The notes under the pieces: model-generated
The model's input: the letters and a program-made list of their open reading frames with translations, nothing else
What the model was told of the DNA's origin: nothing
Database searches by the model: none
From: a virus
Length of the DNA stretch: 44,275 bases
Reading direction: 5' to 3' (one strand)
IMG/VR virus record: IMGVR_UViG_3300031716_000019
Translations under genes and position numbers: made by a program
Shown here: positions 1,869 through 40,850 of the stretch, piece by piece
How positions within the stretch are numbered: the stretch's first letter is position 1
Layout of the letters: each line of letters opens with the position of its first letter

Positions 1869-1871
1869 CTA

Positions 1872-14712: not shown

Positions 14713-14743
14713 AGACCCTTATGCAGCAAGCGCCAAGGCCGGT

Positions 14744-16834: not shown

Positions 16835-16836
16835 AT

Positions 16837-16850
16837 TTAGGACTCCTTAA
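16837..16850. repeat. Dyad element copy A2 (TTAGGACTCCTTAA, imperfect)
   Basis: It lies between the TAA of 16847..17023 and ATG 16834, and doubles as SD AAGGAG on the - strand. Confidence 0.6.
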
Positions 16851-17023
16851 CGCCGAGCGTTGATCGAAAGGTCGAGCAGCTGCTGATCGATGCGTCCGAT
16901 CCGCGCGACCAAGTGCTTTTCGAGCAGCTGGCCGTTCACCCGCTCCTGGTACACGTGTTCAAGCTGCTGGCGCAGTGCATGGCGTTTCCGGTCAAGTACG
17001 AATCGCTTCAGTAATGTTTTCAT
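16847..17023 (-). CDS. 58-aa coiled-coil protein
   Basis: Hand translation: MKTLLKRFVLDRKRHALRQQLEHVYQERVNGQLLEKHLVARIGRIDQQLLDLSINARR. A promoter lies at 17042-17069. Confidence 0.5.
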   Translation of the reverse strand: MKTLLKRFVLDRKRHALRQQLEHVYQERVNGQLLEKHLVARIGRIDQQLLDLSINARR

Positions 17024-17041
17024 TGGGTGCCTCTCAGGTTT

Positions 17042-17069
17042 ATTATAGCAACAGCGAAATATAAATCAA
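17042..17069 (-). promoter_or_regulatory. Sigma70-like promoter (TTGATT-N16-TATAAT) with variant spacer element
   Basis: -10 is the reverse complement of 17042-17047 and -35 the reverse complement of 17064-17069, overlapping the polymerase stop. The spacer holds TTTCGCTGTTGC. Confidence 0.5.
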
Positions 17070-19201
17070 TCTTTTCTGTATCGGTACGTGTCGAAACCGG
17101 CGGCGGCCAGCGGTAAGCCGTCTGCCCAATGTGGGTTCGTCGACATGATCCGCGCCACTTCCTCGTGATTGAATTCGAACGAGTCTTCAGGTTCGGTAAG
17201 CAGTTCGTCGTGCACTGACAGCACGATCGGGCAGCCCGCTTCCTCGAGCGCCGGCATGTTGTGCGCGAGCACGTCGCGCGCGGCGGCTTGGCAGAGGTTT
17301 TCGAAGAGCTTCCCGCCGTAGGTTTTGATGCGCTGCCACTTGCGCGTGTAGCTGTTCAGGCCCATGTACGAAATTTCGCCAGCGTCGCTCACTTCCGGCG
17401 AGGGGTAGCAGAGATGCCGGCCGCTGGGCAATTGCAGGCGCAACCACGTACCGTCACGCCGCACCTTGACGCGGCCCGCGCGCAGCGTGACGCCGGGGTG
17501 CCGAATCGCCTGGATCACAGCATCGCGCAGTTCGCCCCACAATGCGACGATTCCGGGATGCGCCGCGCGCCAGCCGCGCTTCAAAATCTCGCAGGCAATG
17601 AACACTTCTTTTTCCAAGCCCAGCGTCTTGCGCTTTTTCTTCGCCCACTCGTAGAAGCCAAATGCGTCTTTCACGATGTCCTGCGGCAGTTCGTCGAGCG
17701 CACTGAAGACGGCCGCAGCGATGCTCAGCAGTTCCATCTTGTAGGTCATCGCCATCGTGACAAACGCGCCAACACCCCCCTCGTAGCCGAGCGCGAGTTC
17801 CTGCACCTTGCCGAGCTGGCGCTGTTCCTTCGTCACGCTGTCAACGGGCACGCTAAACGAGCGGCCGTAGGCCACTTTGTAGAGGTCGGGGCCGGTGCCC
17901 GCGTCGTACTCGCGAAACGCCTTCAACTTCCAGTCCTCGCCAGCGAGCCACGCGGCCATCCGACCTTCGATATTCGCTAAGTCGGCGATAGACAGCTGCT
18001 TGCTGCTCGGCGCGACGATGCAGCCGCGCACGATGTTGCCGGTCAAGCCCATTACGTTGTCGAAGACCAGATGCGCAGAATCGTTCTTCAGCGCATCGAC
18101 GCCTTGCTCGAGATACGCGGCCATGACTTCGTCGGTCAGCTTGTCGGCGCGCATTTCCTTCAGGATCAGCGGCACGTCCGGCCGCGGCATGTTTTGCGGC
18201 TGGAACATGCGCGCCGCCCAGCGACCAGTGCGGTTCGCGCCGCAGAATTGCAGCAGACCGCGCAGGCGCCCGTCGCTCGACACACCGTTCAGGAGCGTCT
18301 GGTACTTGCTCGTCGACGTCATGCTCGCCTCGAGCCGGATTGCGAGCATCTCGCGCAGCGGCTCAGGCAGGTTCGGGTCAGCGATGCGCCGCTCGAGCGT
18401 GGCTTTCTTCAGGTCGGGCAGGTCGACGTTGTACTCGGCCAGTAAGTGCTTGAGCAGTGCGTCGCGCTGCGTGGCCTTCGCTACTTCGCCATCAGTCAGG
18501 TTCTTTGTGCGCGCGGCGAGGTCCTTCTGTGTGCGATCGACGGCGCGGATCGCCGCTTCAGCGAGCTCGACGTCGACGGCAATGCCGCGATCGTTGATCG
18601 TCAGATCGAGATGCCACAGCGCGAGCTCGCGCGGGTTCGCGGGAAAATTCCATTTCGGGCACTTCGCGTGCACGGCGCGCATTGAAACAATGTCCATGCG
18701 CGCGTAGTCAACGAACTCCTGCCAGAGCGCGGGGTGCGTTTCGCGCGTAGCGCGGCGCAGCTTCTGGTTCTTTGGGGCGGGTTTGCAAAACGTGGTTATG
18801 AGCGTCTTGCCGGTCTTCAGTTTCCGATCATCTTGCGGTAACTGCAGAATCTCGCAGAGGCGGTCGAGCGAGCCGGGGAGGCTGTGCGCCAAGGCTTGCA
18901 CGAGCGTGTCGCGCCAACGGTGCAGCGGCATGCGCGCGTACACGTCAGGCATCGCATGCTTGATGATGACGCGATCGAACTGGCCGCCATTATGAAACCA
19001 CAGTTCACAGTCGGGGTCGTCGATAATCGCCGCGAGCGAAGCGGGCATCGGCTCGCCCGTGGTCACGTCCCAGGCGTGCACCGGGCCGTCTTCGAGCGCG
19101 TACACCCAAATCAGGATTTCCGCCTTTTCTGCGTAGCGGTGCACGCCATGCTTCAACGGTGTTTCGCTGTAGGTCTCGAGATCGTGGTAGCTCTTGCTCA
19201 T
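17066..19201 (-). CDS. Family A DNA polymerase with 3'-5' exonuclease domain
   Basis: Exo motif HDLETYS is present, together with Pol A motifs (IADLANIEGR, RQLGKVQELALGYEGG, SVHDELL). The start is taken at MSKSYHD (ATGA overlap with the HNH stop). The upstream 72 codons of the track ORF look non-coding. Confidence 0.93.
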   Translation of the reverse strand: MSKSYHDLETYSETPLKHGVHRYAEKAEILIWVYALEDGPVHAWDVTTGEPMPASLAAIIDDPDCELWFHNGGQFDRVIIKHAMPDVYARMPLHRWRDTLVQALAHSLPGSLDRLCEILQLPQDDRKLKTGKTLITTFCKPAPKNQKLRRATRETHPALWQEFVDYARMDIVSMRAVHAKCPKWNFPANPRELALWHLDLTINDRGIAVDVELAEAAIRAVDRTQKDLAARTKNLTDGEVAKATQRDALLKHLLAEYNVDLPDLKKATLERRIADPNLPEPLREMLAIRLEASMTSTSKYQTLLNGVSSDGRLRGLLQFCGANRTGRWAARMFQPQNMPRPDVPLILKEMRADKLTDEVMAAYLEQGVDALKNDSAHLVFDNVMGLTGNIVRGCIVAPSSKQLSIADLANIEGRMAAWLAGEDWKLKAFREYDAGTGPDLYKVAYGRSFSVPVDSVTKEQRQLGKVQELALGYEGGVGAFVTMAMTYKMELLSIAAAVFSALDELPQDIVKDAFGFYEWAKKKRKTLGLEKEVFIACEILKRGWRAAHPGIVALWGELRDAVIQAIRHPGVTLRAGRVKVRRDGTWLRLQLPSGRHLCYPSPEVSDAGEISYMGLNSYTRKWQRIKTYGGKLFENLCQAAARDVLAHNMPALEEAGCPIVLSVHDELLTEPEDSFEFNHEEVARIMSTNPHWADGLPLAAAGFDTYRYRKD

Positions 19202-19701
19202 ACGTGCGACCCGTTCCGGCCTGAAAGTATCAGGCCTATCGTGTTTCGGTGGACCCCGTACCGCGCTGCCAGCGCTCGAACTCCGACGCCAGCCAACGCA
19301 TCGCCCCGTATGACTGAAACATCTGCTGCCGTAAGCCGCGCCTTGTGGTTTTTCTCGCCGCGCAACATCAGCCCGTTTTGGGCCGCGCGACGCATATTTT
19401 CTTGCGAAGTTACCCACTCAAGATTTGCGGCCGCGCAGTTCTGCTTATCGCAGTCCAGATGGTCCACTTCGGGTAGATTGTCGGGGTTCGGGATGAATAC
19501 CAAAGCAACAAGTCGATGCAGACGGTATCTAACTTGCGCGCCGTTGGGAGACGTAAGGCACGCTTGCAGATACCCGCTGCTCAAAAGCGTTGGGTGCATG
19601 ATTCGGCCTTCTGCGTGCCTGCAGAACGTTTTAACGCGCCCTTGATCGCTGACCTGATAGCGCCCTTCGAATCCAGGCACGTCGCGCCATTGCTCGATCA
19701 T
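19198..19701 (-). CDS. Homing endonuclease (NUMOD4 + HNH_3-type)
   Basis: WRDVPGFEGRYQVSDQGRV is a NUMOD4-like motif. VDHLDCDKQNCAAANLEWVTSQEN is an HNH_3-like motif. There is also a C-terminal HTH-like tail. Confidence 0.85.
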   Translation of the reverse strand: MIEQWRDVPGFEGRYQVSDQGRVKTFCRHAEGRIMHPTLLSSGYLQACLTSPNGAQVRYRLHRLVALVFIPNPDNLPEVDHLDCDKQNCAAANLEWVTSQENMRRAAQNGLMLRGEKNHKARLTAADVSVIRGDALAGVGVRALAARYGVHRNTIGLILSGRNGSHV

Positions 19702-19892
19702 TCGCCCTCCACCTCAAACTCATGCCCGCACTCAGGGCACATCACACTATCCTCGTCTTCATCCTCACCCGGCTCTCCCTGCGCCGCAAACCGCTTCGCC
19801 GCTTCGATCACCGCGTCGATGTCGTCAGGGTCTGCGCCAAGCGCACGACGCAGCTCTGCGTCGTCGTAGCTGCCGTAATTGCGAATCGTCAT
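19698..19892 (-). CDS. Small acidic protein with CPECG zinc-ribbon-like motif (64 aa)
   Basis: In-frame ATG (MTIRNYGSYDD) with ATGA overlaps at both ends. Very acidic C-terminus. Confidence 0.5.
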   Translation of the reverse strand: MTIRNYGSYDDAELRRALGADPDDIDAVIEAAKRFAAQGEPGEDEDEDSVMCPECGHEFEVEGE

Positions 19893-20173
19893 GCTTCCCC
19901 CGCCGTTTGCTGTTCTTCGAGCACACGATCCGCGACGAGCTTCGCGTAGCCGACGATGTCGTGCCAGTTGTCGTGATAGTTCGGGTCGCCGTTGAGAATG
20001 CGCGCGATCTTGTCGGCGATGACCTCGAGCGCTTGGCGTTGATCCGGTGCGAGCCGTGCCCAGCCGTCCGTTACCCACATTGCGTCTTTGATTTCCTGCG
20101 CGATCACTGCATGGTCTGCGAAGCGTCCATAGCGCGTGCCGCGCTCGGCCAACGTTGCGTTGATGTCACTCAC
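19889..20173 (-). CDS. Conserved phage protein (helical, unknown function)
   Basis: GTG start with GGAG 8 nt upstream. The ERGTRYGRF..ALEVIADKIARILNGDPNYHDNWHDIVGYAKL pattern recurs in phage replication modules. Confidence 0.55.
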   Translation of the reverse strand: MSDINATLAERGTRYGRFADHAVIAQEIKDAMWVTDGWARLAPDQRQALEVIADKIARILNGDPNYHDNWHDIVGYAKLVADRVLEEQQTAGEA

Positions 20174-20354
20174 GGGTAATCTCCGATAGGGTTAGAAATA
20201 GGCTTTGCTCAGGTTTGCCGCACCTCATTAGCGCCCACGACTTGCGCACCTCGCGGCAGTGAAGAAGCTATGCGGGCCACCGCGATTCGCGACCTGAACC
20301 TGTGTACGATCCCGCCTCGGACCGTTTGGAGCGAGCGCCCCGCTAAATTCGTTA

Positions 20355-20370
20355 CCCCGCCGAAGCGGGG
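20355..20370 (-). terminator. GC hairpin with UUCG loop after the SSB-like gene (attenuator or RNA-stabilising hairpin)
   Basis: On the - strand it reads CCCCGC-TTCG-GCGGGG followed by TAACGAATTT. The U-tract is weak. Confidence 0.35.
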
Positions 20371-20379
20371 CGAAATTAC

Positions 20380-20392
20380 TTAGGAGTCCGAA
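20380..20392. repeat. Dyad element copy A3 (TTAGGAGTCCGAA)
   Basis: Located 3 nt downstream of the stop of 20396..20950, with no gene start nearby. Confidence 0.75.
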
Positions 20393-20395
20393 ACA

Positions 20396-20950
20396 TCACT
20401 CCAAATCGTTGTTCGCGTCGGCGCCGTCGCCCATGTCTTCGAAGTCGTCCGCAGCGGCCACGCCACCGCCTGCGAAGGCGTCGCCGTCCTTCACAAACTG
20501 GATACCCTTCAGCGATGCGTTGATGCGCTTGCCATACTGGTTGTCCTGGGCCCACACGTCGATGATCGCGTTCACGTAGCAGCCGGCGTACGGCTTGCCA
20601 TCGGCTTCGGTCAGCGGCGAGCGGTCGCGGTCGATCACGGTCGGGCGCTGCGCGTTGCTGCTGTTCACGAAGAAGTTGCCCTCGTAGCCTTCGTACTCGG
20701 CCTTGCTGTCGCCGTTCTTGAGCACCAGCTTGTCCGGCGTCGTGTTCAGCGCCTTCATCACCGTCTCGACCTTCGCTGCCCATTTTTCCTTGGCGACTTG
20801 CGTCTGCGCGGCGAGCACGTCCTTGTACGCCTGGCTGTTCTTGTCGAAAAGAAAAGCAGCCGAGAACTTGGCTGCGTCGCTGCCAGCGATGGTCTTGGCT
20901 TCGAAGATTGCGGGGAAAGCGAGACGGACGTTTTTGAGAATGACTTGCAT
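20396..20950 (-). CDS. DUF2815-type phage ssDNA-binding protein
   Basis: N-terminus VILKNVRLAFPAIFEAK, and C-terminus GCYVNAIIDVWAQDNQYGKRINASLKGIQFVKDGDAF with an acidic tail, are typical of DUF2815. Confidence 0.8.
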   Translation of the reverse strand: MQVILKNVRLAFPAIFEAKTIAGSDAAKFSAAFLFDKNSQAYKDVLAAQTQVAKEKWAAKVETVMKALNTTPDKLVLKNGDSKAEYEGYEGNFFVNSSNAQRPTVIDRDRSPLTEADGKPYAGCYVNAIIDVWAQDNQYGKRINASLKGIQFVKDGDAFAGGGVAAADDFEDMGDGADANNDLE

Positions 20951-20953
20951 TTT

Positions 20954-21148
20954 TTAATTTACCTTTTTGAAGAACTGGGGGAACCGCATCTTTACCTTGA
21001 AGATCGCTTCGTCAATCAGCACTGCGCGCTCTTCGGGATCTTTCAGCTTCCGGGCTTCGTGCGCAGCGAGAATCAGCGTTGCGCGGGCCTGCGCCGGCAG
21101 GATTCGGCTGGTGTTCTGTGACACCAGCATTTCGGATGCGAAGTTCAT
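20954..21148 (-). CDS. Hypothetical protein (64 aa)
   Basis: ORF track. Tightly packed in the early-left operon. Confidence 0.5.
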   Translation of the reverse strand: MNFASEMLVSQNTSRILPAQARATLILAAHEARKLKDPEERAVLIDEAIFKVKMRFPQFFKKVN

Positions 21149-21339
21149 TGCGCACTCCGCATGCGCTGCTGTGCAGCGAGGTAATCCTGTTCGGCCGTCA
21201 GCGTCGCGCAGCGCAGCGCACCGATGAGCATGCTGAATGTCGCGTCGCTCGTGCGGATCTTGTTGACTGCTTCGTCGATGATCTTGTGGACTTCCAGAGC
21301 CGTCATCGGCTGGGCGGGTTTTTCTTTTTTGGTTGCCAT
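21145..21339 (-). CDS. Hypothetical protein (64 aa)
   Basis: ORF track. 4-nt overlap with the downstream gene. Confidence 0.5.
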   Translation of the reverse strand: MATKKEKPAQPMTALEVHKIIDEAVNKIRTSDATFSMLIGALRCATLTAEQDYLAAQQRMRSAQ

Positions 21340-21350
21340 TGTTTTTGTCC

Positions 21351-22646
21351 TTAAACGAGGTCGTCGTTCTCGTCGGCTAGGGTTTCAAATTGATCCGCGA
21401 CTTTCTCGATGAGCACAGCGGGGCGCGGATCACTCTCAGGTACCACGGTGTTGTTGCCTTCGGACTGCGTCACGAGCGCCGAAGCCTTCTTCCACTTGCG
21501 TGGGTTTTCCTTCAGCACCTTCTCGACGCGCGTCGGGCTCGCGAGCTCGTAGTCGTACATCTCGTCGTGCTTCAGGCGCATTGCCTTCAGCACCGCCTCA
21601 GCTTCCTCAGCGCTCGACCACTTGCGATTACCCTTGCGGCTCTTCACGACCTTGGTGCCGGCGACCGTGTGACCGGCGAAGTTCAGCTGCTCGATCTTCG
21701 CGAACACTGCCTTGCGCCACAGGTCGATTACGTCAAGCGCCGGGAAGATTCGCGCGAGGTCGTCGGGCGTGAGCGCCTCGACCTTCGGGTGCAGCGTGGG
21801 CACAGTCATATCTTCGAACTGCGCCGCTATCGTGTCCTGCGTCAGCTTGGCGAGCCCCGGGCACACGGCGCGGCCGCGGCAGAATCGGCACTGCTTTTCG
21901 CCTGGCTTGAACAGATCGAGATGAAACTTGCCGTCGTCCGATCCGCTCTTTCGTGCGTACTCGACGCGCCGCACATGCCCCATTGCGATCTCTGCGGCCG
22001 GTATTGCGGCTGCGGCTGCCCAGTGCTCAAGGTCCGCAACGTTCGTCGTCCACTCGCGCGGCGTCTCTGAAACGCGCGGCTGGCTGATCGTCAGATTCAC
22101 TTCGTCGAAGTCCGCGAGCAGGCCGAACTTTTCGATTGAACCGAGCCCGTACAGCTTCGTCTGCGGATTCTCGACCACGTCGACCTGCACGCCTCGCCCG
22201 TACTTCAGGTCGATTACCTCGATGAGCGCCTCGTCGCCCTTCGTCGCGATAATGATCGCGTCGCTGGTGCCTTCTGCGCCTTCCTCGCCGGTAATGTGAC
22301 CAATCGGCACGCGCTGCTCGACTTCGAGCTGCACTTCGTAGCCAGCGGCTTCGTACGCCTTGACCTTGTTGCGAACGAGGTCGACATAGGTCTGTACGTA
22401 CTCGGCCATGTCCGCGTCGACTTCGTGGCCCTTGGGCAGCTTTCGGCCGATGTAGTCTGCCGCGTTGTCACCGTTCACCAGGCAGTCAGCGGCGAGCGTG
22501 TGCGCGTCGGTGCCTTCGTCCGCAAACTCGCTGCTGTCGTTCGGCTCGCTCAAACCGAGCGCGATCGACTGTTCGCATTCCAGCCAAGTGTGCGCGGACG
22601 ATGGGCTCAGAAGCGCGTGGTAGTTGTCATCGCGCACGTCAGTCAC
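21351..22646 (-). CDS. PD-(D/E)XK exonuclease, DUF2800 / Cas4-like with Cys cluster
   Basis: There is an N-terminal SPSSAHTWLECEQS, a DLKYG nuclease motif, and a C-terminal CRFCRGRAVCPG cluster. This is the standard partner of DUF2815 and Pol A. Confidence 0.85.
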   Translation of the reverse strand: MTDVRDDNYHALLSPSSAHTWLECEQSIALGLSEPNDSSEFADEGTDAHTLAADCLVNGDNAADYIGRKLPKGHEVDADMAEYVQTYVDLVRNKVKAYEAAGYEVQLEVEQRVPIGHITGEEGAEGTSDAIIIATKGDEALIEVIDLKYGRGVQVDVVENPQTKLYGLGSIEKFGLLADFDEVNLTISQPRVSETPREWTTNVADLEHWAAAAAIPAAEIAMGHVRRVEYARKSGSDDGKFHLDLFKPGEKQCRFCRGRAVCPGLAKLTQDTIAAQFEDMTVPTLHPKVEALTPDDLARIFPALDVIDLWRKAVFAKIEQLNFAGHTVAGTKVVKSRKGNRKWSSAEEAEAVLKAMRLKHDEMYDYELASPTRVEKVLKENPRKWKKASALVTQSEGNNTVVPESDPRPAVLIEKVADQFETLADENDDLV

Positions 22647-22869
22647 GGCTGTTCTCCAAGGTCACGGTGCCGTTGAAGTCGGTGAAAAACTGCATGCCCC
22701 AGCTTTCGGTGTAATAACCGACCTTATGGACCCCGCTTTCCGCCTCCCGAACAGAGGTGCCGATGCCTGGGCCCGAGAACAGCACAACCTCGCCGTCCTT
22801 GGCAACCATCAACTTCGGGAACGAAATTGGTAAGGACTCCGAAACATTAACCTGCGCTTTTATTGCCAC
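22639..22869 (-). CDS. Hypothetical protein
   Basis: ORF track (GTG 22869). Alternative ATG at 22809. Overlaps the exonuclease start. Confidence 0.5.
   Translation of the reverse strand: MAIKAQVNVSESLPISFPKLMVAKDGEVVLFSGPGIGTSVREAESGVHKVGYYTESWGMQFFTDFNGTVTLENSRD
22831..22843. repeat. Dyad element copy A4 (TAAGGACTCCGAA)
   Basis: Lies inside the 5' end of 22639..22869 and the 3' end of 22847..23008. Confidence 0.7.
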
Positions 22870-23008
22870 GTTTCACCCCCGTTTTTGAAGCAGGTTTCGC
22901 TTGTGCACCGCGCGTCGGTGCGGGCTTGCGGCGTGCCGGTCGCATCGTGCGGAAGAAGCCCATCACCGCGAGCGCCATGCCGGGTTCGTGTTGCGTTGCG
23001 CGAGACAT
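22847..23008 (-). CDS. Basic 53-aa protein
   Basis: Hand translation: MSRATQHEPGMALAVMGFFRTMRPARRKPAPTRGAQAKPASKTGVKRGNKSAG. The ATG follows the dyad element (TCCTAACTAAATG). Confidence 0.35.
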   Translation of the reverse strand: MSRATQHEPGMALAVMGFFRTMRPARRKPAPTRGAQAKPASKTGVKRGNKSAG

Positions 23009-23012
23009 TTAG

Positions 23013-23025
23013 TTAGGACTCCGAA
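23013..23025. repeat. Dyad element copy A5 (TTAGGACTCCGAA)
   Basis: Covers the last codons (ISES) and the stop of 23013..23222. Confidence 0.75.
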
Positions 23026-23222
23026 ATGTCGATGCAGTTTTCTTCGAGATGATCGGCGAGTGCATCGAAAATCTTGTCGCACTCTGCCGCCGTCGCGGGC
23101 GGCTCTTCGGGCAGGTTGAAGTCCTCGAGGATCTTGACGATCTTGGGGTGTCCGTTCCGCTCGTTGGTAGCCGACCAGCGCATCGCGCGGTAACGTCGGG
23201 CCTGCTGTTCGATCGTGCTCAT
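23013..23222 (-). CDS. Hypothetical protein (69 aa)
   Basis: ORF track. AAGGA SD upstream of the ATG. Confidence 0.55.
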   Translation of the reverse strand: MSTIEQQARRYRAMRWSATNERNGHPKIVKILEDFNLPEEPPATAAECDKIFDALADHLEENCIDISES

Positions 23223-23238
23223 GGCGCTATCCTTTTAG

Positions 23239-23251
23239 TTAGGAGTCCGAA
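23239..23251. repeat. Dyad element copy A6 (TTAGGAGTCCGAA)
   Basis: Intergenic, between the stop of 23257..23757 and the SD of 23013..23222. Confidence 0.75.
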
Positions 23252-23256
23252 ACGTT

Positions 23257-23757
23257 TCACTCCAAACCCTCGGCGCCTTCGGGCAGTACTGCTTCGCTCG
23301 CATCCTCGCCGGCCATGACCTTCTGCGCGAGCGCATAGACGTCTGCGTAGACCGCAATGCCGAGCTGGCTGATCTTCTGCACACCGAACCGTTGAAGCAG
23401 TGCTTCGGCTTGCTCGCGGCTGTCTTGCGGCGTGCCGCGGCTCTTCTTCGACACCTCGAGCACGGCTTGCTTCACCGCGTCGAAGTCAACTTCCGGCTTC
23501 GTCGGCGCCGTGGATTCCGGCGAGGAAGCGGGCGAAGTGTCGGAAGTGGGCTTCGATTTCGGCGTTTCGGGCTTTTTTGCGGCTTCTTCCTTCTCGACCT
23601 TGGTCGGCTGCTCGGTGGCTGCCCAGGCGGGGGCGATCGTCACTGGTGCGGCGACGGGCGTCGACATGCCGGCGGTAAATGCGTTGCCGCTCTTCAATTG
23701 AGCGATCAACGCATTAATTGCGGACGTATTTTCGGACAGCGCTTGCTCGAGACTCAT
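23257..23757 (-). CDS. Hypothetical early protein (166 aa, central P/T/S/K-rich linker)
   Basis: ORF track. First gene of the early-left operon. SD GAGAGGAAA. Confidence 0.6.
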   Translation of the reverse strand: MSLEQALSENTSAINALIAQLKSGNAFTAGMSTPVAAPVTIAPAWAATEQPTKVEKEEAAKKPETPKSKPTSDTSPASSPESTAPTKPEVDFDAVKQAVLEVSKKSRGTPQDSREQAEALLQRFGVQKISQLGIAVYADVYALAQKVMAGEDASEAVLPEGAEGLE

Positions 23758-23825
23758 TTCAGATTTCCTCTCAGGTTTAACTGCATTCGTCGGAACAACG
23801 GGATGAAATTTATGCCCCGATTTCG

Positions 23826-23854
23826 ACTATAGCAAGCGGTATATTTGTGTTGCT
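23826..23854 (-). promoter_or_regulatory. Early-left promoter candidate (TGC-TATAGT extended -10, weak -35)
   Basis: -10 is the reverse complement of 23826-23831. It lies about 70 nt upstream of ATG 23757, in the divergent control region. Confidence 0.3.
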
Positions 23855-23872
23855 CCCCCTTGACACTTTATT

Positions 23873-23901
23873 TACGCTGTGGTTGCAGCATCTGCTATAA
23901 C
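23873..23901 (+). promoter_or_regulatory. Early-right promoter candidate (GCATCTGC-TATAAC)
   Basis: A 13-nt stretch, GCATCTGCTATAA, is identical to the promoter at 30488-30515. The -35 is poor. Confidence 0.3.
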
Positions 23902-24016
23902 GCTGCGTGAAATCGTCGCAGGCCTTGTCCGGCATGGCTTGCAAGGTATTCCGCACGGATTGCATACGGTGCGAGAAGTAGTTTCGTCGGATGAATGCGA
24001 CACGGTTTTTTAAATA

Positions 24017-24045
24017 ACTGTTGCGTGTTTCGCACATGCTACAAT
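24017..24045 (+). promoter_or_regulatory. Promoter candidate with TTTCGCACATGC-TACAAT
   Basis: The conserved 12-mer (24028-24039) abuts TACAAT (24040-24045). The -35 is weak. It lies 30 nt upstream of ATG 24075. Confidence 0.35.
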
Positions 24046-24074
24046 CGCGTATCGACATTGAAAGGATGCAAGCC

Positions 24075-24362
24075 ATGGGCAGCAAGAAGCTTCACGAGTG
24101 GATGAAGGCGGCCACGCCTGACGAGCAGCACGCACTGGCCGCCGCGGCGACGACGTCTCGCTCGGTGCTCTACCAGTTGTGCTACCCGAAAGAGAAGGGC
24201 GGCCGTGTCGCATCGGCCGAACTAGCTGACCGGATCGAGACCGCGGCTAAGCCGATCACATCGAAATCGAAGGGCAGACTGCCGCAGCTCACGCGAGCCG
24301 ATCTGTGCCCGGCGTGCGCAGCGTGCCCCTACTTCGCGAAGTGTGGGCCGCGCTCTGATTAA
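24075..24362 (+). CDS. Putative HTH regulator with C-terminal CxxCxxC motif
   Basis: In-frame ATG with AAAGGA SD, within track ORF 24021..24362. First gene of the rightward early unit. The HTH-like segment is SRSVLYQL..ASAELADRI. Confidence 0.55.
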   Translation: MGSKKLHEWMKAATPDEQHALAAAATTSRSVLYQLCYPKEKGGRVASAELADRIETAAKPITSKSKGRLPQLTRADLCPACAACPYFAKCGPRSD

Positions 24363-24446
24363 AGCAATCGCGAAAAAATTCTTCGTGACAAACGTCTCCC
24401 TGATCGGCTAGATTTGCCTCTGTCCTAATTCGTATAGAGGCGTGTC

Positions 24447-24650
24447 ATGTTGATCGGGGTAACGGATGTTGTTGAACTTCTGGAAGTGTCTAGGTCGACC
24501 GTTTATCGGTTGATGGAGCGGCACGACTTCCCAAAAGCTATTAAGGTTGGCGGCTCAGTGCGATGGGATTTTAAGGAGGTCGATGCTTGGGTGGAGGCGC
24601 AGAAAGCGAAGCGCGACGGTTCATTGGGCGCCGAAACTTCGGAGTCCTAA
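24447..24650 (+). CDS. AlpA / excisionase-type HTH regulator
   Basis: VVELLEVSRSTVYRLMERHDFPKAIKVGGSVRWDFKEVDAWV matches the AlpA-family pattern. Confidence 0.75.
   Translation: MLIGVTDVVELLEVSRSTVYRLMERHDFPKAIKVGGSVRWDFKEVDAWVEAQKAKRDGSLGAETSES
24638..24650. repeat. Dyad element copy A7 (TTCGGAGTCCTAA)
   Basis: Encodes SES plus the stop of 24447..24650. It lies 3 nt before ATG 24654. Confidence 0.75.
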
Positions 24651-24653
24651 GCA

Positions 24654-25256
24654 ATGAAGGTCTGCACGAAATGCGGTGCCGAGAAGACGCTTGATGGATT
24701 CGGCAGGGATAGGGGTAGGTTGCGCAGCCATTGCAAAGTGTGCGCAACTGCTGCAGGCAAAAAGTGGGGCGAAGAGAACCGGGAGCGCGTGGCTAGAAAC
24801 CGCAAAAAGTGGCGAGAAGAAAACCCGGGGCGCTACGCAGCCAATAGTAAAAAGTGGCGCGAAGAGAATCAGGCTCGCGTGGCCGCCAACAACAAAAAGT
24901 GGTACGAAGAGAATCGCGAGCGCGTAGCTGCCTACAACAAAAAGCGGAGAGAAGAAAACCCGGAGCGCGAACGGGAGTTGCAATTGAAGCGTAAGTACGG
25001 TATCGGCCTAGTGGAGTACCAACAAATGGCGGACGCGCAGAATGGAAAGTGCGCGATTTGCCGCGGGGAGAATGAACATCGATCAATGCCTGTTGACCAC
25101 GACCATCATACCGGTCAGGTGAGGGGACTACTGTGCGACCTCTGTAACCAAATGATCGGACTGGGTCGCGACAACGAATTCATTTTGGAGTCCGCGATCG
25201 AGTACCTGCGCAAGCACCGCGCGATCGGTCGGACGGAGAATCTGGACTTGATATGA
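24654..25256 (+). CDS. Endonuclease VII-family (HNH-like) homing endonuclease
   Basis: CAICRGENEHRSMPVDHDHHTGQVRGLLCDLCNQMIG matches the recombination endonuclease VII signature. ATGA overlap with the primase gene. Confidence 0.85.
   Translation: MKVCTKCGAEKTLDGFGRDRGRLRSHCKVCATAAGKKWGEENRERVARNRKKWREENPGRYAANSKKWREENQARVAANNKKWYEENRERVAAYNKKRREENPERERELQLKRKYGIGLVEYQQMADAQNGKCAICRGENEHRSMPVDHDHHTGQVRGLLCDLCNQMIGLGRDNEFILESAIEYLRKHRAIGRTENLDLI
24750..24959 (+). repeat. Five tandem 42-bp coding repeats (14-aa unit A-x-N-x-KKWREEN-x-ERV)
   Basis: Seen in the translation as KKWGEENRERV / KKWREENPGRY / KKWREENQARV / KKWYEENRERV / KKRREENPERE. Confidence 0.7.
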
Positions 25257-27478
25257 CGACAGAACAAGAAGACCTTGCGCGAGCTATCGCGCCGCTCGTC
25301 GAGCGCGTACGCCGGGATACTTGCGTGGAAGTCAAACCCGGTAAAGCCCCTGCCCGCGTAGACCAGCCGCTCTCCGATGTCAAAGTGCGCCGGCATCTGT
25401 CCGGTGGTACCGCGTACGGTGCATACCCTATGCTGCCTGGCAGCTCGACTACGCGGGTCGCTCTGCTCGATATGGACAGCCACCGCGGGGAGACGGCGTG
25501 GCCCGATATGCAGACGGCTGCACTGCGCGTCATGCAGGCGGCCGAGGCGCGAGGACTGCTTGGGACGCCGTTCCGTAGTGGCGGTGGCAAGGGCGTGCAC
25601 GTCTATTTTCTATGGGAAGCCGAGAACGATGCCTACAGCGTTCGTGCGTTGCTCGCCGACGTTTTGGCCGATGCGGGCTTTACGGATGGCGCTGGCGGTG
25701 TTGCCGCAGGCGAGATCGAGATTTTCCCCAAACAGGATCGTATCGAGCCGGGGAAGTTCGGGAACATGTTCGTGATACCAGGGGCGCGCAAGAGCGTACC
25801 CCTGGATACCTTCGAACTCGAGGACTCAGATTACTTCGGACTCCTAACTAATGGGTGGCCGATGTCGTCACCTGTCGCGCCGCGTGAGCGCCCAGCTACA
25901 TCGTCGTTGACCGTCGTGAAAGCGCCGAGCTCGTCAGCAACTTGGCGCCAAGCGCTCGACGCGATCCCGAATTCAGGTAGCAACGAGCTGCCGTACGATG
26001 ACTGGTTCAAGATCATCGCAGCGATCGACTTCGAAACCGAGCACAGCGACGAAGGGCTGCAAATCGCGCTCGAGTTCAACGCGCGCGCCGGCAAAGACAA
26101 TCGCGAGTTCTTCGAAAACCGGGTGTGGCCATACCTGACACCGGACCGCGACCGGCCCATTACCGGGGAGACGATCAAACGGATTGCCGCTGAGCAATAC
26201 GGCTGGGAAGAGGATGTGGCGCAGCAGTTTGAAGTGTTGCCGGCGTCGTCTGCCGACAGTCCCGAGCTCGACGAGGCGTTGCCGGACTTCCTGAACCGCA
26301 ACCCAAAGACCGGCATTGTGCCGGCGAACAGCACGAATATTTACCTGGCGCTCAAGTGCCGCGCGATCGTGCCCTGGACGCTGGGTTATGACTCGTTCCG
26401 CGACGACATCATGCGCCTTGAGCGTGGCGGCTCGGAATGGGTTCCGTTCGATGAGGTCGATTACCCGCGGCTTGCCATCGCGCTCGAGGCGGTGAAGTTT
26501 GGCGAGATTCCGCACGCCAACTTGCGACGCATGGTGGCAATGGTGGCGCACGAGAACACCTTCGACTCGGCGATGCAGTGGCTGACCGGCTTGCCGGCCT
26601 GGGACGGCGTGAAGCGTTGCGAGACGTTCCTGCAGGACTGCATGGGTGTGGAAGACACGCCATACACGCGCGCGGTGTCGCGGTACATGTGGAGCGCGCT
26701 CGCGGGGCGCGTGCTGTCGCCTGGTGTCAAGGCGAAGATGGCGGTCATTCTTACGGGCTTGCAGAACGCGGGCAAGTCGACGCTCGTTGAAACCATCGCG
26801 CCTTCGATTTCGTTTTTCACCACGCTCGACCTGTCGAACACTGGGCCAGAGATGAGCCGGCTGATGCGCGGCCGGCTGCTGATTGAGCTGCCAGAGCTTA
26901 AGGGCATGCGCAATGGCAGCATCGAGCACATCAAGGCGATGATTAGCCGCACGCACGAGGACATCCGCAACCTATACGCCGAGAAGTATCACCAGTACGC
27001 GCGACGCTTCATTTTCATCGGTACGACCAACGACGATGAATTCTTGGTCGACCGCACCGGTAACAGCCGGTTCTTGCCGGTGCGAGCTGGGAAGGGCGAC
27101 CTCGAGCGCATCGCGCGCGATCGCGAGCAGCTTTGGGCCGAAGGCGCAGCGCTTTTCGGTGAGCATGGCGTGATGTGGGAAGAGGCCGAAGGCCTAGCGC
27201 AGGCCGAGCACCAGCAGTTTATGGTGAGCGACACGTGGGAAGAGCACATCGCGCAATGGCTGGACGAGGCGGACATGGATGGCGAAGAGCCCCGCGGTTA
27301 TGGCCCGTTCCTGCTTTCCGACGTCTTGCACGGAGCGCTGGGGCTGAACGCGCAGCAGGTCAACAAGCCAATCCAGATGCGCGCGGCCGACTCGCTCAAA
27401 GCACTGGGCTATGTGAAGCAGCAGAAGCGGGTGGGCGGCGCTGTGCGCAAGGTCTGGATCGATTCTCTGCTGCTGTAG
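25253..27478 (+). CDS. Bifunctional primase-polymerase / VirE-D5-like P-loop helicase
   Basis: There is an N-terminal prim-pol-like domain (LLDMDSH..GKGVHVYF). A central P-loop is present (TGLQNAGKST). The C-terminal wHTH-like tail is ..LGYVKQQKRVGGAVRKVW. Confidence 0.88.
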   Translation: MTTEQEDLARAIAPLVERVRRDTCVEVKPGKAPARVDQPLSDVKVRRHLSGGTAYGAYPMLPGSSTTRVALLDMDSHRGETAWPDMQTAALRVMQAAEARGLLGTPFRSGGGKGVHVYFLWEAENDAYSVRALLADVLADAGFTDGAGGVAAGEIEIFPKQDRIEPGKFGNMFVIPGARKSVPLDTFELEDSDYFGLLTNGWPMSSPVAPRERPATSSLTVVKAPSSSATWRQALDAIPNSGSNELPYDDWFKIIAAIDFETEHSDEGLQIALEFNARAGKDNREFFENRVWPYLTPDRDRPITGETIKRIAAEQYGWEEDVAQQFEVLPASSADSPELDEALPDFLNRNPKTGIVPANSTNIYLALKCRAIVPWTLGYDSFRDDIMRLERGGSEWVPFDEVDYPRLAIALEAVKFGEIPHANLRRMVAMVAHENTFDSAMQWLTGLPAWDGVKRCETFLQDCMGVEDTPYTRAVSRYMWSALAGRVLSPGVKAKMAVILTGLQNAGKSTLVETIAPSISFFTTLDLSNTGPEMSRLMRGRLLIELPELKGMRNGSIEHIKAMISRTHEDIRNLYAEKYHQYARRFIFIGTTNDDEFLVDRTGNSRFLPVRAGKGDLERIARDREQLWAEGAALFGEHGVMWEEAEGLAQAEHQQFMVSDTWEEHIAQWLDEADMDGEEPRGYGPFLLSDVLHGALGLNAQQVNKPIQMRAADSLKALGYVKQQKRVGGAVRKVWIDSLLL
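25835..25847. repeat. Dyad element copy A8 (TTCGGACTCCTAA) inside the primase ORF
   Basis: The full junction-type string TTCGGACTCCTAACTAATG is read through in frame as FGLLTN. Confidence 0.75.
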
Positions 27479-29529: not shown

Positions 29530-29542
29530 TCAGGACTCCTAA
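29530..29542. repeat. Dyad element copy A9 (TCAGGACTCCTAA)
   Basis: Lies between the stop at 29547 and the ATG at 29527. Confidence 0.65.
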
Positions 29543-31638: not shown

Positions 31639-31667
31639 ATTATATTTTGCATTTGCGAAACCATCAA
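31639..31667 (-). promoter_or_regulatory. Leftward promoter (TTGATG-N17-TATAAT) overlapping the late promoter
   Basis: -10 is the reverse complement of 31639-31644 and -35 the reverse complement of 31662-31667. The spacer holds TTTCGCAAATGC (31649-31660). Confidence 0.5.
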
Positions 31668-31675
31668 AGGATAAT
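31647..31675 (+). promoter_or_regulatory. Late-operon promoter candidate (TTGCAT-N17-GATAAT)
   Basis: -35 at 31647-31652 and -10 at 31670-31675. The predicted start falls in the perfect dyad at 31677-31691. It lies 30 nt upstream of terS. Confidence 0.5.
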
Positions 31676-31677
31676 AG

Positions 31678-31690
31678 TTAGGAATCCTAA
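31678..31690. repeat. Dyad element copy A10 (TTAGGAATCCTAA; 15-bp perfect palindrome GTTAGGA-A-TCCTAAC)
   Basis: Located at the predicted +1 of the late promoter, 16 nt before terS ATG 31706. Confidence 0.8.
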
Positions 31691-31705
31691 CTAAAGCTGC
31701 TCCAC

Positions 31706-32886: not shown

Positions 32887-34418
32887 TGCAGGTATCCCGC
32901 TCACCCACGCAAACAGCGCGATCGACGAAGCCCCCACCGAAGATGGCGAAGGGCAAGCTCGATGTTGCGCTGATCGAAGGGTTTCAGCGGATGTACCTGT
33001 GGGATGGGTTCGACGATCCGGCACCAACCGCGCCGTTTCACCGGACGATGTGGGAAGAGGCGTGTAACCCAGGGTTGAAGTATTGCGCCTGGGCCGCACC
33101 GCGCGGGCACTCGAAGTCGACGTCGATCACGCACACGTTCGCGATGGCCGTCATCCTGTTTCGGATGCGCGACCACATCATGATCGTCTCGGACTCCGAA
33201 ACTCAGGCCGTGCACCAGCTCAAGGAAATCAAGAACGATTTCTACGAGAACGAAGACCTGTGCGCAGACTTCCAGTTTCGGCAGTTCCTGAAGGACACGG
33301 AAACCGAAATCATCCTCGAGTTCGCGGATGGCCATGTGGTGCGGGTCATCGCGAAGGGCAGCGAGCAGCGTCTGCGTGGCCTGAAGTGGCGCGGCAAGCG
33401 ACCAAACATGGTGCTCGGCGACGATCTGGAGTTCGACGAGATCGTGACGAACCCGGAGCGCCTGAAGAAGTTCAAGGCATGGTTCTTCAAGCAGCTGTTG
33501 CCGGCGGGTTCGAAAGATTGCCTGTTTCGCATCGTCGGCACGATCCTGTCGTTTAACTCGCTGCTGATGGACTTGATGAGCGACGCGCAATGGACGACGC
33601 ACCTGTGGGCTGCACATCACTCGTTCGACGACTTCAGCGAGATTCTGTGGCCGGATGCTTGGACCGAAGAGCGACTGCGCGAGACGCGGCAGGTGTTCGT
33701 CAACCAGGGGCAGTCGGATGCGTACTCGCAGGAATACCTGAACCAGCCGATCGCCGAGGGCAACAGCTTCTTCGACCGCGACGATCTGCTCGACATCCCG
33801 GAAGAGCACTACCGCGACTGGGAACACAACCCCGGCCGGCGCCCAGTGAACTTCTACGCCTCGGTGGACTTGGCCGTGTCGACGCGCCAGAGCGCGGACC
33901 GCTCGGTTATCTCGGTCGCGACGCTCGACGCGGCGCAGAACCTCGACCTGATCGACGTGAAGAAGGGCCGCTGGGAACCGAAGACGCTGGTCGACCAGAT
34001 TTTCGCCGTGCACGAAGAGTACGAACCCGATACGTGGTTCGTCGAGTCGGGCACGATCTTGAAAGCGCTGGGGCCGTACTTGAACGAGGAAATGGCGCGG
34101 CGCAACTGCTTCTTGACGCTGCACCTGATGATCCCGAGCAAGGACAAAGTGACACGCGCGAAGTCGATCCAGGCGCGGATCAAGGCGCGGCGCGTGCGCT
34201 TTGACAAGAGCGCGGACTGGTACGACGACGTCGAGCAGGAAATGCTGCAGTTCCCTCGCGGCGCGCACGATGACGTGGTCGACACGTTGAGCCAGTTTGG
34301 GCTGGCGCTCGATCAGGTCGTCACGCCACCCACGGAAGAAGAGGTCGAGGAAGAAGAGTACGCCGCTGAAGTGGCGGGCGCATACCAACAAGGCAGAAGC
34401 AAAACGACCGGGTATTGA
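32886..34418 (+). CDS. terL: Terminase large subunit
   Basis: Walker A-like AAPRGHSKST, Walker B MVLGDDLE, and a C-terminal RNase H-like nuclease (DLAVS..; HDDVVD). An alternative start lies at 32943. Confidence 0.93.
   Translation: MQVSRSPTQTARSTKPPPKMAKGKLDVALIEGFQRMYLWDGFDDPAPTAPFHRTMWEEACNPGLKYCAWAAPRGHSKSTSITHTFAMAVILFRMRDHIMIVSDSETQAVHQLKEIKNDFYENEDLCADFQFRQFLKDTETEIILEFADGHVVRVIAKGSEQRLRGLKWRGKRPNMVLGDDLEFDEIVTNPERLKKFKAWFFKQLLPAGSKDCLFRIVGTILSFNSLLMDLMSDAQWTTHLWAAHHSFDDFSEILWPDAWTEERLRETRQVFVNQGQSDAYSQEYLNQPIAEGNSFFDRDDLLDIPEEHYRDWEHNPGRRPVNFYASVDLAVSTRQSADRSVISVATLDAAQNLDLIDVKKGRWEPKTLVDQIFAVHEEYEPDTWFVESGTILKALGPYLNEEMARRNCFLTLHLMIPSKDKVTRAKSIQARIKARRVRFDKSADWYDDVEQEMLQFPRGAHDDVVDTLSQFGLALDQVVTPPTEEEVEEEEYAAEVAGAYQQGRSKTTGY
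33188..33200. repeat. Dyad element copy A11 (CTCGGACTCCGAA; perfect core TCGGA-C-TCCGA) inside terL
   Basis: It is the only copy oriented against local transcription. It codes SDSE. Confidence 0.55.
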
Positions 34419-37951: not shown

Positions 37952-38526
37952 GCCGCAGCCGCGAACGTTTGGAAGCACTTGCAGCCGGAGTTTCAGTTAG
38001 GACTCCTGACAATTCGGATTTGGTCGGCGAGGCACCAGTGCGCTCGCAGACTGATCGAGAGGTGAAGACGATCCGCACGCGACAGCGCGGCGTCTTCAAC
38101 GGTACGAACAAGCGCCTCGAGGTGCTCACGCAAATCCCCGGCTATGTGCAGCGGTGGTTTAACGAGACGCCGGGGCGCCTCGAGCGCGCCGAGTCGGGCG
38201 GCTGGGAATTCGTCGAGCGCAGTGAAGTGTCGCTCGCCGAGAGCAACAAGGTCGTCGAGCGCAATTCGGACGTGGGCAACCGCATCCGCGCGATCGTCGG
38301 CACGACGGACCAGAACACGCCGCTGTACGCCTACTTGATGAAGATCAAGCAGGAATGGTTCGAAGAGGACCAGCAAGAATCGGTGCAGACAATCGCCAAG
38401 AGCGAGCGCGACATGCTGCGCAACGGCGGGATGAACACCGATCGAATCGGCGAGAAGTACCTGCCCGATCAGCGCAAGCAAGCGCTGGTGGTGCAGCAGG
38501 GCGAATTCGGACGAACGGTTAGTTAA
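37948..38526 (+). CDS. Hypothetical head-morphogenesis protein
   Basis: ORF track. ATGA overlap with the upstream gene. Contains dyad copy A12 about 50 nt into the ORF. Confidence 0.5.
   Translation: MSRSRERLEALAAGVSVRTPDNSDLVGEAPVRSQTDREVKTIRTRQRGVFNGTNKRLEVLTQIPGYVQRWFNETPGRLERAESGGWEFVERSEVSLAESNKVVERNSDVGNRIRAIVGTTDQNTPLYAYLMKIKQEWFEEDQQESVQTIAKSERDMLRNGGMNTDRIGEKYLPDQRKQALVVQQGEFGRTVS
37997..38009. repeat. Dyad element copy A12 (TTAGGACTCCTGA)
   Basis: Read in frame as VRTPD within 37948..38526. Confidence 0.6.
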
Positions 38527-40834: not shown

Positions 40835-40850
40835 GCAATAGGGAAGGTAA

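Follow-up and report, generated by a model that had tools for sequence, protein, structure and literature searches.

Dispersed dyad-symmetric 13-mers at the gene junctions of a temperate phage genome as candidate operators for a dimeric DNA-binding protein

Short repeats dispersed over the gene junctions of a phage genome have been described so far almost only in actinobacteriophages, as stoperators, as start-associated sequences (SAS), and as the repeats of Cluster O; among these three, the mechanism is known for stoperators alone. The stoperators of the Cluster A mycobacteriophages L5, Bxb1, and TipsytheTRex are 13-bp, junctional, oriented silencing sites bound by a monomeric immunity repressor (PMC9283540; PMC4351075). 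The SAS of Cluster K are also 13 bp long; they embed AGGAG between symmetric outer bases, may hold the upstream stop codon, and lie 3–7 bp before an ATG (PMC3203893). In Cluster O mycobacteriophages, there are more than 30 dyad 17-mers (TGTTCGGNNNCCGAACA), many intergenic and a third intragenic, on which the authors predict the binding of dimeric proteins (PMC4351075). Lastly, the PeSLs of T4-type phages are mobile regulatory cassettes composed of an early promoter and a stem-loop/terminator, which precede small ORFans and are candidates for shuffling them (PMC2839356, PMC4122927). In this work, we analyzed the IMG/VR virus record IMGVR_UViG_3300031716_000019, a stretch of 44,275 bases (hereinafter, the window) that is apparently a whole temperate phage genome with a G+C content of 60%, and a dyad-symmetric 13-mer, TTAGGA-N-TCCTAA or its variant TTCGGA-N-TCCTAA, which recurs at the junctions of its genes.

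An earlier note on this DNA had listed twelve good copies of the element and three degenerate ones. The exact word TTMGGANTCCKAA gave 7 matches in the window, against a mean of 0.01 in 100 dinucleotide-preserving shuffles, none of which (0/100) reached 7; the excess over composition-matched shuffles, which the note had proposed to check, is thus confirmed. Its count of 7 for the sub-pattern YTTCGGASTCC was reproduced too, and the corresponding hand estimate of 0.08 expected matches was borne out by a shuffle mean of 0.11. Up to one mismatch, 12–13 copies were retrieved; up to two mismatches, there were 14 matches against 3.43 expected, that is, all the good copies plus the site at 40822 and a chance-level match at 4181. 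A position weight matrix (PWM) built from 11 copies scored above 10 bits these same sites only, the best extra one being 40822 (24.6 bits). Furthermore, outside the full copies, only 3 occurrences of the half-site hexamers (TCCTAA and TTAGGA) were counted in the genome.

Eleven of the twelve good copies were upheld. The remaining one, CTCGGACTCCGAA within terL (33188..33200, plus strand), was rejected: the relatives show TCGGACTCGGAA or TCGGACTCGTAC at the same codons, and the site is mostly ancestral coding sequence (S-D-S-E), best treated as a chance resemblance. Regarding the degenerate copies, 40822 is probably a member of the set, having TCCTAAGCAAT in common with the copy at 24638, whereas 30457 and 31613 score below membership with the PWM. 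The genuine members are eleven or twelve, and the repeat is real and statistically robust. The set of 12 used hereinafter consists of the eleven upheld copies plus 40822. The copies are the following (genes are numbered according to the present gene map; SD, Shine–Dalgarno sequence):

1856..1872, plus strand: TTAGGACTCCTAA followed by CTAA; it includes the TAG stop of g3 (1857-1859), and the ATG of g4 is at 1872.
16835..16849, minus strand: TAAGGAGTCCTAA, opening with the TAA stop of g23; the ATG of g22 is 2 nt on; sole SD.
20376..20392, minus strand: TTCGGACTCCTAA followed by GTAA, 3 nt past the TGA stop of g28 (ssDNA-binding protein).
22827..22843, minus strand: TTCGGAGTCCTTA, 3 nt past the stop (TAA) of g33; the ATG of g32 is 21 nt on.
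23009..23025, minus strand: TTCGGAGTCCTAA followed by CTAA; it codes S-E-S-stop of g34, and the ATG of g33 is 4 nt on; sole SD.
23235..23251, minus strand: TTCGGACTCCTAA followed by CTAA, 5 nt past the TGA stop of g35; g34 starts 16 nt on with its own AAGGA SD.
24638..24656, plus strand: TTCGGAGTCCTAA; it codes S-E-S-stop of g37 (AlpA/HTH_17), and the ATG of g38 is 3 nt on; sole SD.
25835..25851, plus strand: TTCGGACTCCTAA followed by CTAA, within the primase-helicase gene g39, where it is read F-G-L-L-T-N.
29530..29542, minus strand: TTAGGAGTCCTGA in the minus-strand reading, 4 nt past the TGA of g44; the ATG of g43 is 2 nt on; sole SD.
31675..31693, plus strand: perfect 19-bp palindrome TAGTTAGGAATCCTAACTA, 2–3 nt past a predicted -10 box and 15 nt before the ATG of terS (31706).
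37997..38009, plus strand: TTAGGACTCCTGA, within g55 (ATG at 37948), where it is read V-R-T-P-D.
40822..40838, plus strand: TTCGCACTCCTAA followed by GCAA, probable degenerate copy; it codes S-H-S-stop of g58, and the ATG of g59 is 16 nt on.

Along the direction of transcription, the unit can be written as (stop)-N0-5-TT[C/A]GGA-S-TCCTAA-CTAA-(ATG). The consensus half-sites are complementary at 6 pairs out of 6, around a variable centre that may be G, C, or A. Two sub-classes can be recognized: the six TTCGGA...TCCTAA copies fall between 20380 and 25835, in both arms of the early region, and the TTAGGA type is found elsewhere; the copies 1856, 31678, 37997, and 40822 belong to the packaging, head, or tail region.

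The placement at gene junctions was upheld: 9 of the 12 copies either overlap the stop codon of the upstream gene or are at most 5 nt away from it, a situation for which 3.0% of positions qualify (binomial P = 4e-12, a signal to which the TAG and TAA of the motif itself contribute in part). The upstream stop lies 3–5 nt 5' of the motif in four copies, is the TAA at motif positions 11–13 in three, and is the TAG or TAA of the left half in two. As for the downstream gene, an ATG follows after 2–4 nt in five copies (g4, g22, g33, g38, and g43), where the motif is the only SD, and after 15–21 nt in four (g34, g59, g32, and g47); among the latter, g34 and g59 have a separate SD, and g32 and g47 have no clear one. 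All the start codons adjoining the motif are ATG. Two copies out of 12, 25835 in the primase gene and 37997 in g55, are intragenic.

The asymmetric parts of the word, i.e., the C at position 3 upstream and the CTAA downstream, point along transcription in all the orientable copies, and the TTCGGA-type copies, six out of six, are arranged with TTC in the upstream half and TCCTAA(CTAA) in the downstream one. The co-orientation claimed for every copy except 33188 therefore holds, with 33188 now dropped and with the reservation that 29530 is ambiguous, rather than plus, because it lies between minus-strand genes (TGA-tctc-TTAGGAGTCCTGA-tt-ATG). The codings reported previously (SES-stop twice, FGLLTN, VRTPD, and SDSE) were confirmed. 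Selection on the nucleotide word and not on a peptide, as proposed in the earlier note, is supported by the copies being intergenic or read in differing frames, and by the 12-nt in-frame insertion and the linker substitutions described below.

The remark that half of the copies supply a GGAG could be sharpened: GGAG is present in 5 of the 12 copies, and the G centre is concentrated where the motif is the sole SD (4 out of 5 copies, versus C or A in 6 of the 7 others; one-sided Fisher P = 0.045). This link suggests that SD use is an overlay on an otherwise free centre; accordingly, it looks secondary to the primary function of the element. The centre would become G if the downstream gene requires an SD, and where none is needed, the mRNA would avoid a spurious GGAG. 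The GGAG-to-ATG spacing is 8–10 nt at the motif copies versus 6–7 nt at the ordinary strong SDs of the phage.

Folding with ViennaRNA revealed that the arms of the motif pair only in 2 of the 12 copies, 31678 (-8.1 kcal/mol) and 37997 (-6.0 kcal/mol), which form triloop hairpins with stems of 6–8 bp and a pairing probability of at least 0.9. The six TTCGGA...TCCTAA copies stay at about 0 kcal/mol, with a pairing probability of at most 0.10 and a C.U mismatch kept without compensation. Hence, the argument that a 1-nt centre excludes a hairpin was wrong, since a triloop forms, but its conclusion holds for the majority of copies by virtue of the C.U mismatch. An RNA or ssDNA hairpin as a conserved feature was ruled out by these folds, and no copy matched Rfam; the lack of a conserved hairpin implies that RNA or ssDNA structure does not explain the dyad. 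Beside copy 20380 there is a separate GC-rich terminator-like hairpin (CCCCGC-UUCG-GCGGGG in the fold), 8 nt downstream, with the next gene start 206 nt off. Moreover, both the GGACTCC-type copies of the left operon are preceded by TTTGGAGTGA (20393-20410 and 23252-23270, minus strand), and in both cases the upstream protein ends L-E-stop; the GGAGT of this context can pair with the ACUCC of the motif and does so in the predicted folds. This shared upstream sequence may reflect common descent or local structure alike.

The origin of the motif was traced through relatives of the window, fetched by portal (14 loci, 72–77% amino acid identity) or by ssDNA-binding protein (18 loci, 36–61%). The 13-mer is absent from all these loci, and the conservation at orthologous junctions that had been proposed as a check was not found, relatives with 55–77% identical proteins lacking the motif. 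At the g3/g4 junction, an ordinary AAGG SD takes the place of the motif in L004, one of the relatives, and the sequence upstream of terS in the relatives is unrelated. The homologues of g37 in L003, L007, and L009 stop 7–10 residues short and are followed at once by the next gene, with neither motif nor g38, whereas the g37 of the window has a motif-bearing tail followed by the endonuclease VII gene g38. Similarly, g58 and g59 together represent an insertion relative to L008. Both intragenic copies arose within coding sequence. The g55 of L008 and L004 shares the N-terminus SRSRERLE..LAAG and has 12 nt fewer; as these 12 nt create the motif in the window, copy 37997 is an in-frame insertion. 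Copy 25835 aligns without indels to the primase homologues, in a linker that varies in sequence but keeps its length, and was therefore made by substitutions. Two perfect copies flank the ORFan g34, for which no homologue was found anywhere. Overall, nearly every copy lies at a border between conserved and lineage-specific DNA.

In a count of stop-centred 8-mers over 23 related loci, only L089 had an 8-mer at four junctions, the GC-rich GCCGCCGC, versus GGAGTCCT at five junctions in the window; two cruder k-mer and palindrome scans of the relatives were swamped by GC-rich words and were uninformative. The absence of the word in the relatives, together with the lack of a comparable junction word, indicates that the motif is a recent, lineage-specific acquisition.

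The same word was found in a few other sequences. A second phage, IMGVR_UViG_3300028768_000001 (M63; 63.9 kb, GC 0.61), has three copies in the 33.9 kb read, two of which are TTAGGAGTCCTAA with an ATG directly after; all that it shares with the window is lysis genes (33–45% identity) and very distant replication/integration genes (22–29%). The contig IMGVR_UViG_3300047272_000365 (L242; GC 0.47) surfaced from a scan of millions of contigs for exactly this pattern and harbors seven copies of GTTAGGAWTCCTAAC in 8 kb (743-4834). These are perfect 15-bp palindromes placed 3–8 nt past stop codons, except for two intragenic ones, which use the same pair of frames as the intragenic copies of the window and are read V-R-I-P-N or L-G-F-L-T. 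The sequences flanking the palindromes (CCG...CA) are asymmetric and conserved. WhiB-like and sigma-like proteins, recognized by reading the translations of its open reading frames (ORFs), make this contig actinophage-like in appearance; it has no protein in common with the window, and the two palindromes may be a coincidental match of independent repeat systems.

A genome-collection scan with the 17-mer gave 58 matches, mostly single chance matches scattered over many phyla. Three were in Trinickia: one intergenic (stop, motif, SD, ATG), one inside a coding gene, and one directly before an ATG; no local multi-copy pattern was present there, and a host element is not established. Ten Ga0307489 contigs (L156 plus nine) were discarded as an unrelated eukaryote-like repeat, whose unit is a tandem of about 315 bp with TTAGTTAGGACTCCTAATTGATGAGATACCCC, a tRNA-like sequence, TTTAGGG telomere-like repeats, and a GC content of about 0.5. 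A literature search for the sequence itself retrieved primers only.

Given the position of the word a few nt past stop codons in three genomes (the window, M63, and L242), one might conceive TTAGGA-N-TCCTAA as a widespread intercistronic signal, read by a conserved factor or by the transcription/translation machinery across unrelated phages and hosts. We regard this extension as quite unlikely; if it were true, it would represent a new class of gene-junction punctuation, coupling the termination of one cistron to the control of the next.

The reading that we tentatively prefer, which we hold to be plausible if somewhat short of probable, is that the 13-mers are operators scattered over the genome and recognized by a dimeric, sequence-specific DNA-binding protein, the dyad symmetry and the absence of a conserved hairpin making such a protein the most economical explanation. 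The scattered words would be duplex-DNA sites for a protein binding as a symmetric dimer, either phage-encoded or taken from the host. A site bound within an operon would act as an orientation-sensitive transcription roadblock or silencer, and a site at the predicted terS promoter would block the initiation of the late operon; one protein would thereby control several transcription units of a temperate phage. Locally, the word would have been co-opted in three ways: its TAA or TAG would serve as the stop codon of the upstream gene, the CTAA extension would close a second frame, and a G at the centre would provide GGAG as the SD of the downstream gene. The placement at gene seams would then be expected, because an AT-ended palindrome containing TAG and TAA can be read through in only one frame per strand, and the co-orientation would be the product of these co-options or of a polar roadblock, as in stoperators.

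Three copies (20380, 25835, and 37997) have no gene start to serve, and copy 31678 occupies the position of a classical operator at a predicted promoter. The latter is one of the promoters predicted in the window, which are the following:

31648..31675, plus strand: predicted sigma-70-type promoter of the packaging/structural operon, TTGCAT - 16 nt - GATAAT, a consensus match only.
29960-29925, minus strand: predicted TTGCAT-N16/17-TATAAT promoter with embedded TTTCGCA.
30488-30516, plus strand: predicted promoter of the same make-up.
15866-15838, minus strand: predicted promoter of the same make-up.
24028-24045, plus strand: TGcTACAAT extended -10 preceded by GTTTCGCA.

More generally, a family of strong, sigma-70-like promoters, TTGCAT (or TTGCAC)-N5-TTTCGCA-N4/5-TATAAT, often with a TG-extended -10, can be recognized, also at 31648-31675 (plus strand) and 30700-30735, and TTTCGCA/TGCGAAA recurs at all the predicted control regions. 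These TTTCGCA sites are probably the real CI/Cro operators, distinct from the 13-mer; since they are what the early promoters carry, the 13-mer is probably not a CI/Cro operator. Around 29883-29945, the YdaS-like ORF (29928-30368) starts in or near a TATAGC -10-like hexamer overlapping the divergent leftward promoter, which suggests that the mRNA of this putative repressor is leaderless, as at lambda PRM. Directly downstream of the promoter 30488-30516, about 180 nt (30520-30700, plus strand) are very GC-rich and apparently non-coding, and include TTAGTTCGGAGG, half of the extended motif; this stretch had no Rfam match and may encode a small RNA or serve as a leader.

Three recognizable helix-turn-helix (HTH) proteins are encoded in the window: g36 (Cro-like), g37 (AlpA/HTH_17), and the YdaS-like ORF. 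By elimination, g37 would be the first phage candidate for the binder, because its gene ends in a copy and because g36 and the YdaS-like protein more plausibly use TTTCGCA. Several observations weigh against the operator reading. None of the three HTH proteins is tied to the motif by any evidence, and relatives that keep a g37 homologue (45–55% identity) are devoid of such sites. The early promoters bear TTGCAT-N5-TTTCGCA, and no 13-mer occurs in the divergent control region 23757-24447 or at the promoters near 29960 and 30488. The promoter at 31648 rests on its match to the consensus. The two other palindrome-bearing phages share no regulator with the window in the available sequence, and none common to the motif-bearing phages was found in the 33.9 kb of M63, in L242, or in L264. 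Lastly, a signal acting at the RNA level would equally account for the strict co-orientation and for the close association with stop and start codons.

Such a signal could be a start-associated translation element resembling SAS, in which stop codons, GGAG, spacer, and ATG are read in the mRNA by the ribosome or by an RNA-binding factor of the phage or of the host, which would set or regulate how the downstream cistron is initiated. This is possible but rather doubtful. It would account well for the five copies placed 2–4 nt before an ATG and acting as the sole SD of g4, g22, g33, g38, and g43, for the exclusive use of ATG next to the motif, and for the orientation along transcription. The TTAGGAGTCCTAA copies of M63 (two out of three) and one Trinickia chromosomal copy precede an ATG likewise, and SAS also combine 13 bp, an internal AGGAG, symmetric outer bases, and a possible upstream stop (PMC3203893). 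Yet 7 of the 12 copies are out of SD position (four at 15–21 nt, one on the terminator side without a gene, and two intragenic), and 6 of these 7 have a C or A centre and thus no GGAG; the 8–10-nt spacing exceeds the ordinary one, a dyad would be useless in a linear RNA signal, and the transcript at 31678 is predicted to begin within the word, so that the RNA would carry only half of it.

An RNA structure or processing site, namely a stem-loop cut by an endoribonuclease or stabilizing the upstream mRNA, like the RNase III sites of T7, appears very unlikely. Intercistronic placement and co-orientation would suit it, as would the 6–8-bp triloop hairpins of 31678 and 37997 and the seven L242 palindromes, all of them foldable; however, the six best-conserved copies remain unfolded with their uncompensated C.U mismatch, and Rfam gave no match. 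Two further candidates were rejected. For a promoter recognized by an RNA polymerase or sigma factor of the phage, no such protein was seen among the translations inspected by eye, and the ATG follows 2–4 nt after the word. An integron attC site was considered because GTTAGGA/TCCTAAC resemble GTTRRRY/RYYYAAC, but the order of the cores is inverted and there is no 50–120-nt body.

The word might instead act as a linker or boundary of accessory-gene cassettes, that is, as a microhomology for the gain, loss, and shuffling of small lineage-specific genes in a PeSL-like manner; we deem this unlikely. It would be in keeping with the copies preceding each of the ORFans g32, g33, and g34, with those between g37 and the inserted g38 and between the inserted g58 and g59, with those between g44 (conserved) and g43 (ORFan), between g28 and variable genes, and between the variable C-terminus of g3 and the conserved g4, as well as with the presence of the same word in two otherwise unrelated phages. 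Furthermore, 24638 and 40822 both stand beside endonuclease VII genes and share the longer string TCCTAAGCAAT, and PeSLs offer a precedent (PMC2839356). On the other hand, 13–17 bp are short for homologous exchange, and copy 25835 arose in place by substitution and not by insertion. No homologue of a flanked gene was found elsewhere with the same flanks, g34 having no homologue at all; PeSLs consist of a promoter and a stem-loop of tens of bp, neither of which is present here; and other mosaic borders, such as g31/g30/g29, lack the motif. The suggestion of a recombination hotspot made in the earlier note fits the position of nearly every copy at a conserved/variable border but is not proven by it; no exchange event was found.

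A DNA nicking, cleavage, or modification site, i.e., a target of HNH or endonuclease VII proteins or of methylation at the embedded GANTC, is highly improbable. The phage does encode two Endonuclease_7 (g38 and g58) and two HNH (g18 and g25) proteins, two copies adjoin endonuclease VII genes, and the core contains GANTC; but GANTC occurs 113 times in the window, only about 12 of these sites being in the motif, and is neither depleted nor confined to it, and the methylation idea put forward initially finds no support. No methyltransferase signature was seen by eye in the translations, only about 30 proteins having been scanned against Pfam or PHROGs. Moreover, homing-type nucleases normally have no targets in their own genome, and neither the seam placement nor the link between centre base and SD would be explained. 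Finally, to a chance or compositional artefact of AT-rich stop, start, and SD signals at compact junctions we give practically no weight: TAG, TAA, and GGAG are indeed all expected at junctions, but the 7 exact matches stand against 0.01 in the shuffles, the ordinary junctions of this phage differ, the 23 related loci have no 8-mer at four or more junctions except for the GC-rich word of L089, and the half-site hexamers are found only 3 times outside full copies.

The genome in which these sites are embedded has the following organization:

1-12496, plus strand: tail and lysis genes.
12490-23757, minus strand: leftward replication/recombination operon (SNF2 helicase, integrase, DNA polymerase A, DUF2815-type ssDNA-binding protein, and DUF2800 nuclease).
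14057-14296 and 19198-19701: HNH genes g18 and g25.
14744-15799: integrase gene, in the leftward operon.
24075-27478, plus strand: rightward early operon (Cro-like g36, AlpA/HTH_17 g37, endonuclease VII g38, and AEP-VapE primase-helicase g39).
24654-25256 and 40160-40834: Endonuclease_7 genes g38 and g58, respectively.
29928-30368: YdaS-like repressor candidate, at a block of small leftward genes.
From terS (31706) onward: packaging and head genes.

Words of a repeat with a 51-nt period are identical at both ends of the window (1-150 and 44152-44275), within a fibre-like ORF, which indicates a circularly closed or permuted complete genome. An independent assembly (SRR8549365) holds an identical 22-kb stretch, and its called genes agree with the present gene map. 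The integrase implies that the phage is temperate. No close relative of the window was found among deposited phages. The nearest named primase homologues (at most 49% identity) come mainly from Burkholderia, Caballeronia, Paraburkholderia, Trinickia, Achromobacter, and Bordetella; these organism names point to a Burkholderiales host as likely, and to Burkholderiaceae as probable.

The Endonuclease_7 paralogues g38 and g58 are 46% identical across their C-terminal ~90 residues, and at least two of the four nuclease genes (two Endonuclease_7, two HNH) are inserted relative to close relatives. The gene g38 is placed between the AlpA-like gene and the primase gene; g58 follows a terminator-like hairpin (40131-40157) and is flanked by the major capsid gene and g60. 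The portal gene is separated from the next head gene by a Cpn10/GroES-like gene (36727-37047), whose product shares 76–83% amino acid identity with those of relatives. The region 14657-14709 (minus strand), immediately downstream of the integrase gene, gave a sub-threshold Rfam match to a plastid 3'UTR family (58.9 bits, E = 3e-10); it may be a tRNA-gene fragment and could represent an attP core matching the 3' end of a host tRNA. No tRNA genes were found.

The window provides an example from a proteobacterial temperate phage, in which a dyad core, orientation, and the use of stop codon and SD are joined in one word with traits of stoperators, SAS, and Cluster O repeats alike. Dyad, polarity, and translational co-option have precedents otherwise, but we found none for this combination, and none in proteobacterial phages. 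Furthermore, the genome offers natural experiments in the centre base toggling with SD use, the copy in the primase linker, the copy inserted in frame, and the close relatives devoid of the motif. If a binding protein were found, the phage would represent a compact model of genome-wide silencing or timing outside the actinobacteriophages, and the motif a portable 13-bp control element; a role in RNA or recombination would instead give insight into how accessory genes plug into phage operons.

Among the known systems, the closest of which all belong to mycobacteriophages, stoperators share with the motif the 13-bp word, the many copies in a temperate phage, the location in short intergenic stop/start spaces, and the co-orientation (PMC9283540; PMC4351075); if the sites are operators, they would also share a protein bound within operons. 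Stoperators are asymmetric, whereas the motif is a 6-N-6 dyad whose asymmetry is limited to position 3 and to CTAA. They repeat the true operator of the early lytic promoter, whereas the early promoters of the window bear TTTCGCA and a copy occurs only at a predicted late promoter. Cluster A phages have 24–36 stoperator copies, and the window has about 12. Their hosts are actinobacterial, that of the window is likely proteobacterial, and no homologous repressor was found in it.

SAS resemble the motif in being 13 bp long, with an SD core, symmetric outer bases, and sometimes the upstream stop, and in occurring in one orientation and in one lineage (PMC3203893). Nevertheless, they are found 3–7 bp before virtually every associated start, always in the non-structural genome half, whereas 5 of the 12 copies of the window are in SD position (2–4 nt), 3–4 belong to the structural region, and 2 fall within genes. 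SAS are non-palindromic, unlike the motif, and the ESAS-like upstream inverted repeat, a feature of Cluster K, is absent in the window.

The repeats of Cluster O are, similarly to the motif, a genome-wide dyad word with intergenic, 5'-end, and intragenic copies and without ties to promoters (PMC4351075). They have a 3-bp centre and 7-bp arms instead of a 1-bp centre and 6-bp arms; they are unoriented and without a link to starts or stops, whereas the motif is oriented and stop/start-associated; and the phages carrying them are not obviously temperate, in contrast to that of the window. PeSLs, too, are repeats that precede small ORFans in variable regions and are candidate mediators of shuffling (PMC2839356, PMC4122927), but they are longer composites, whereas 11 of the 12 copies have no predicted promoter next to them and a conserved stem-loop is lacking. 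The element of the window thus misses at least one defining feature of each of these families; therefore, it is not assigned to any one of them and is best filed as a variant of this general kind of phage junction repeat.

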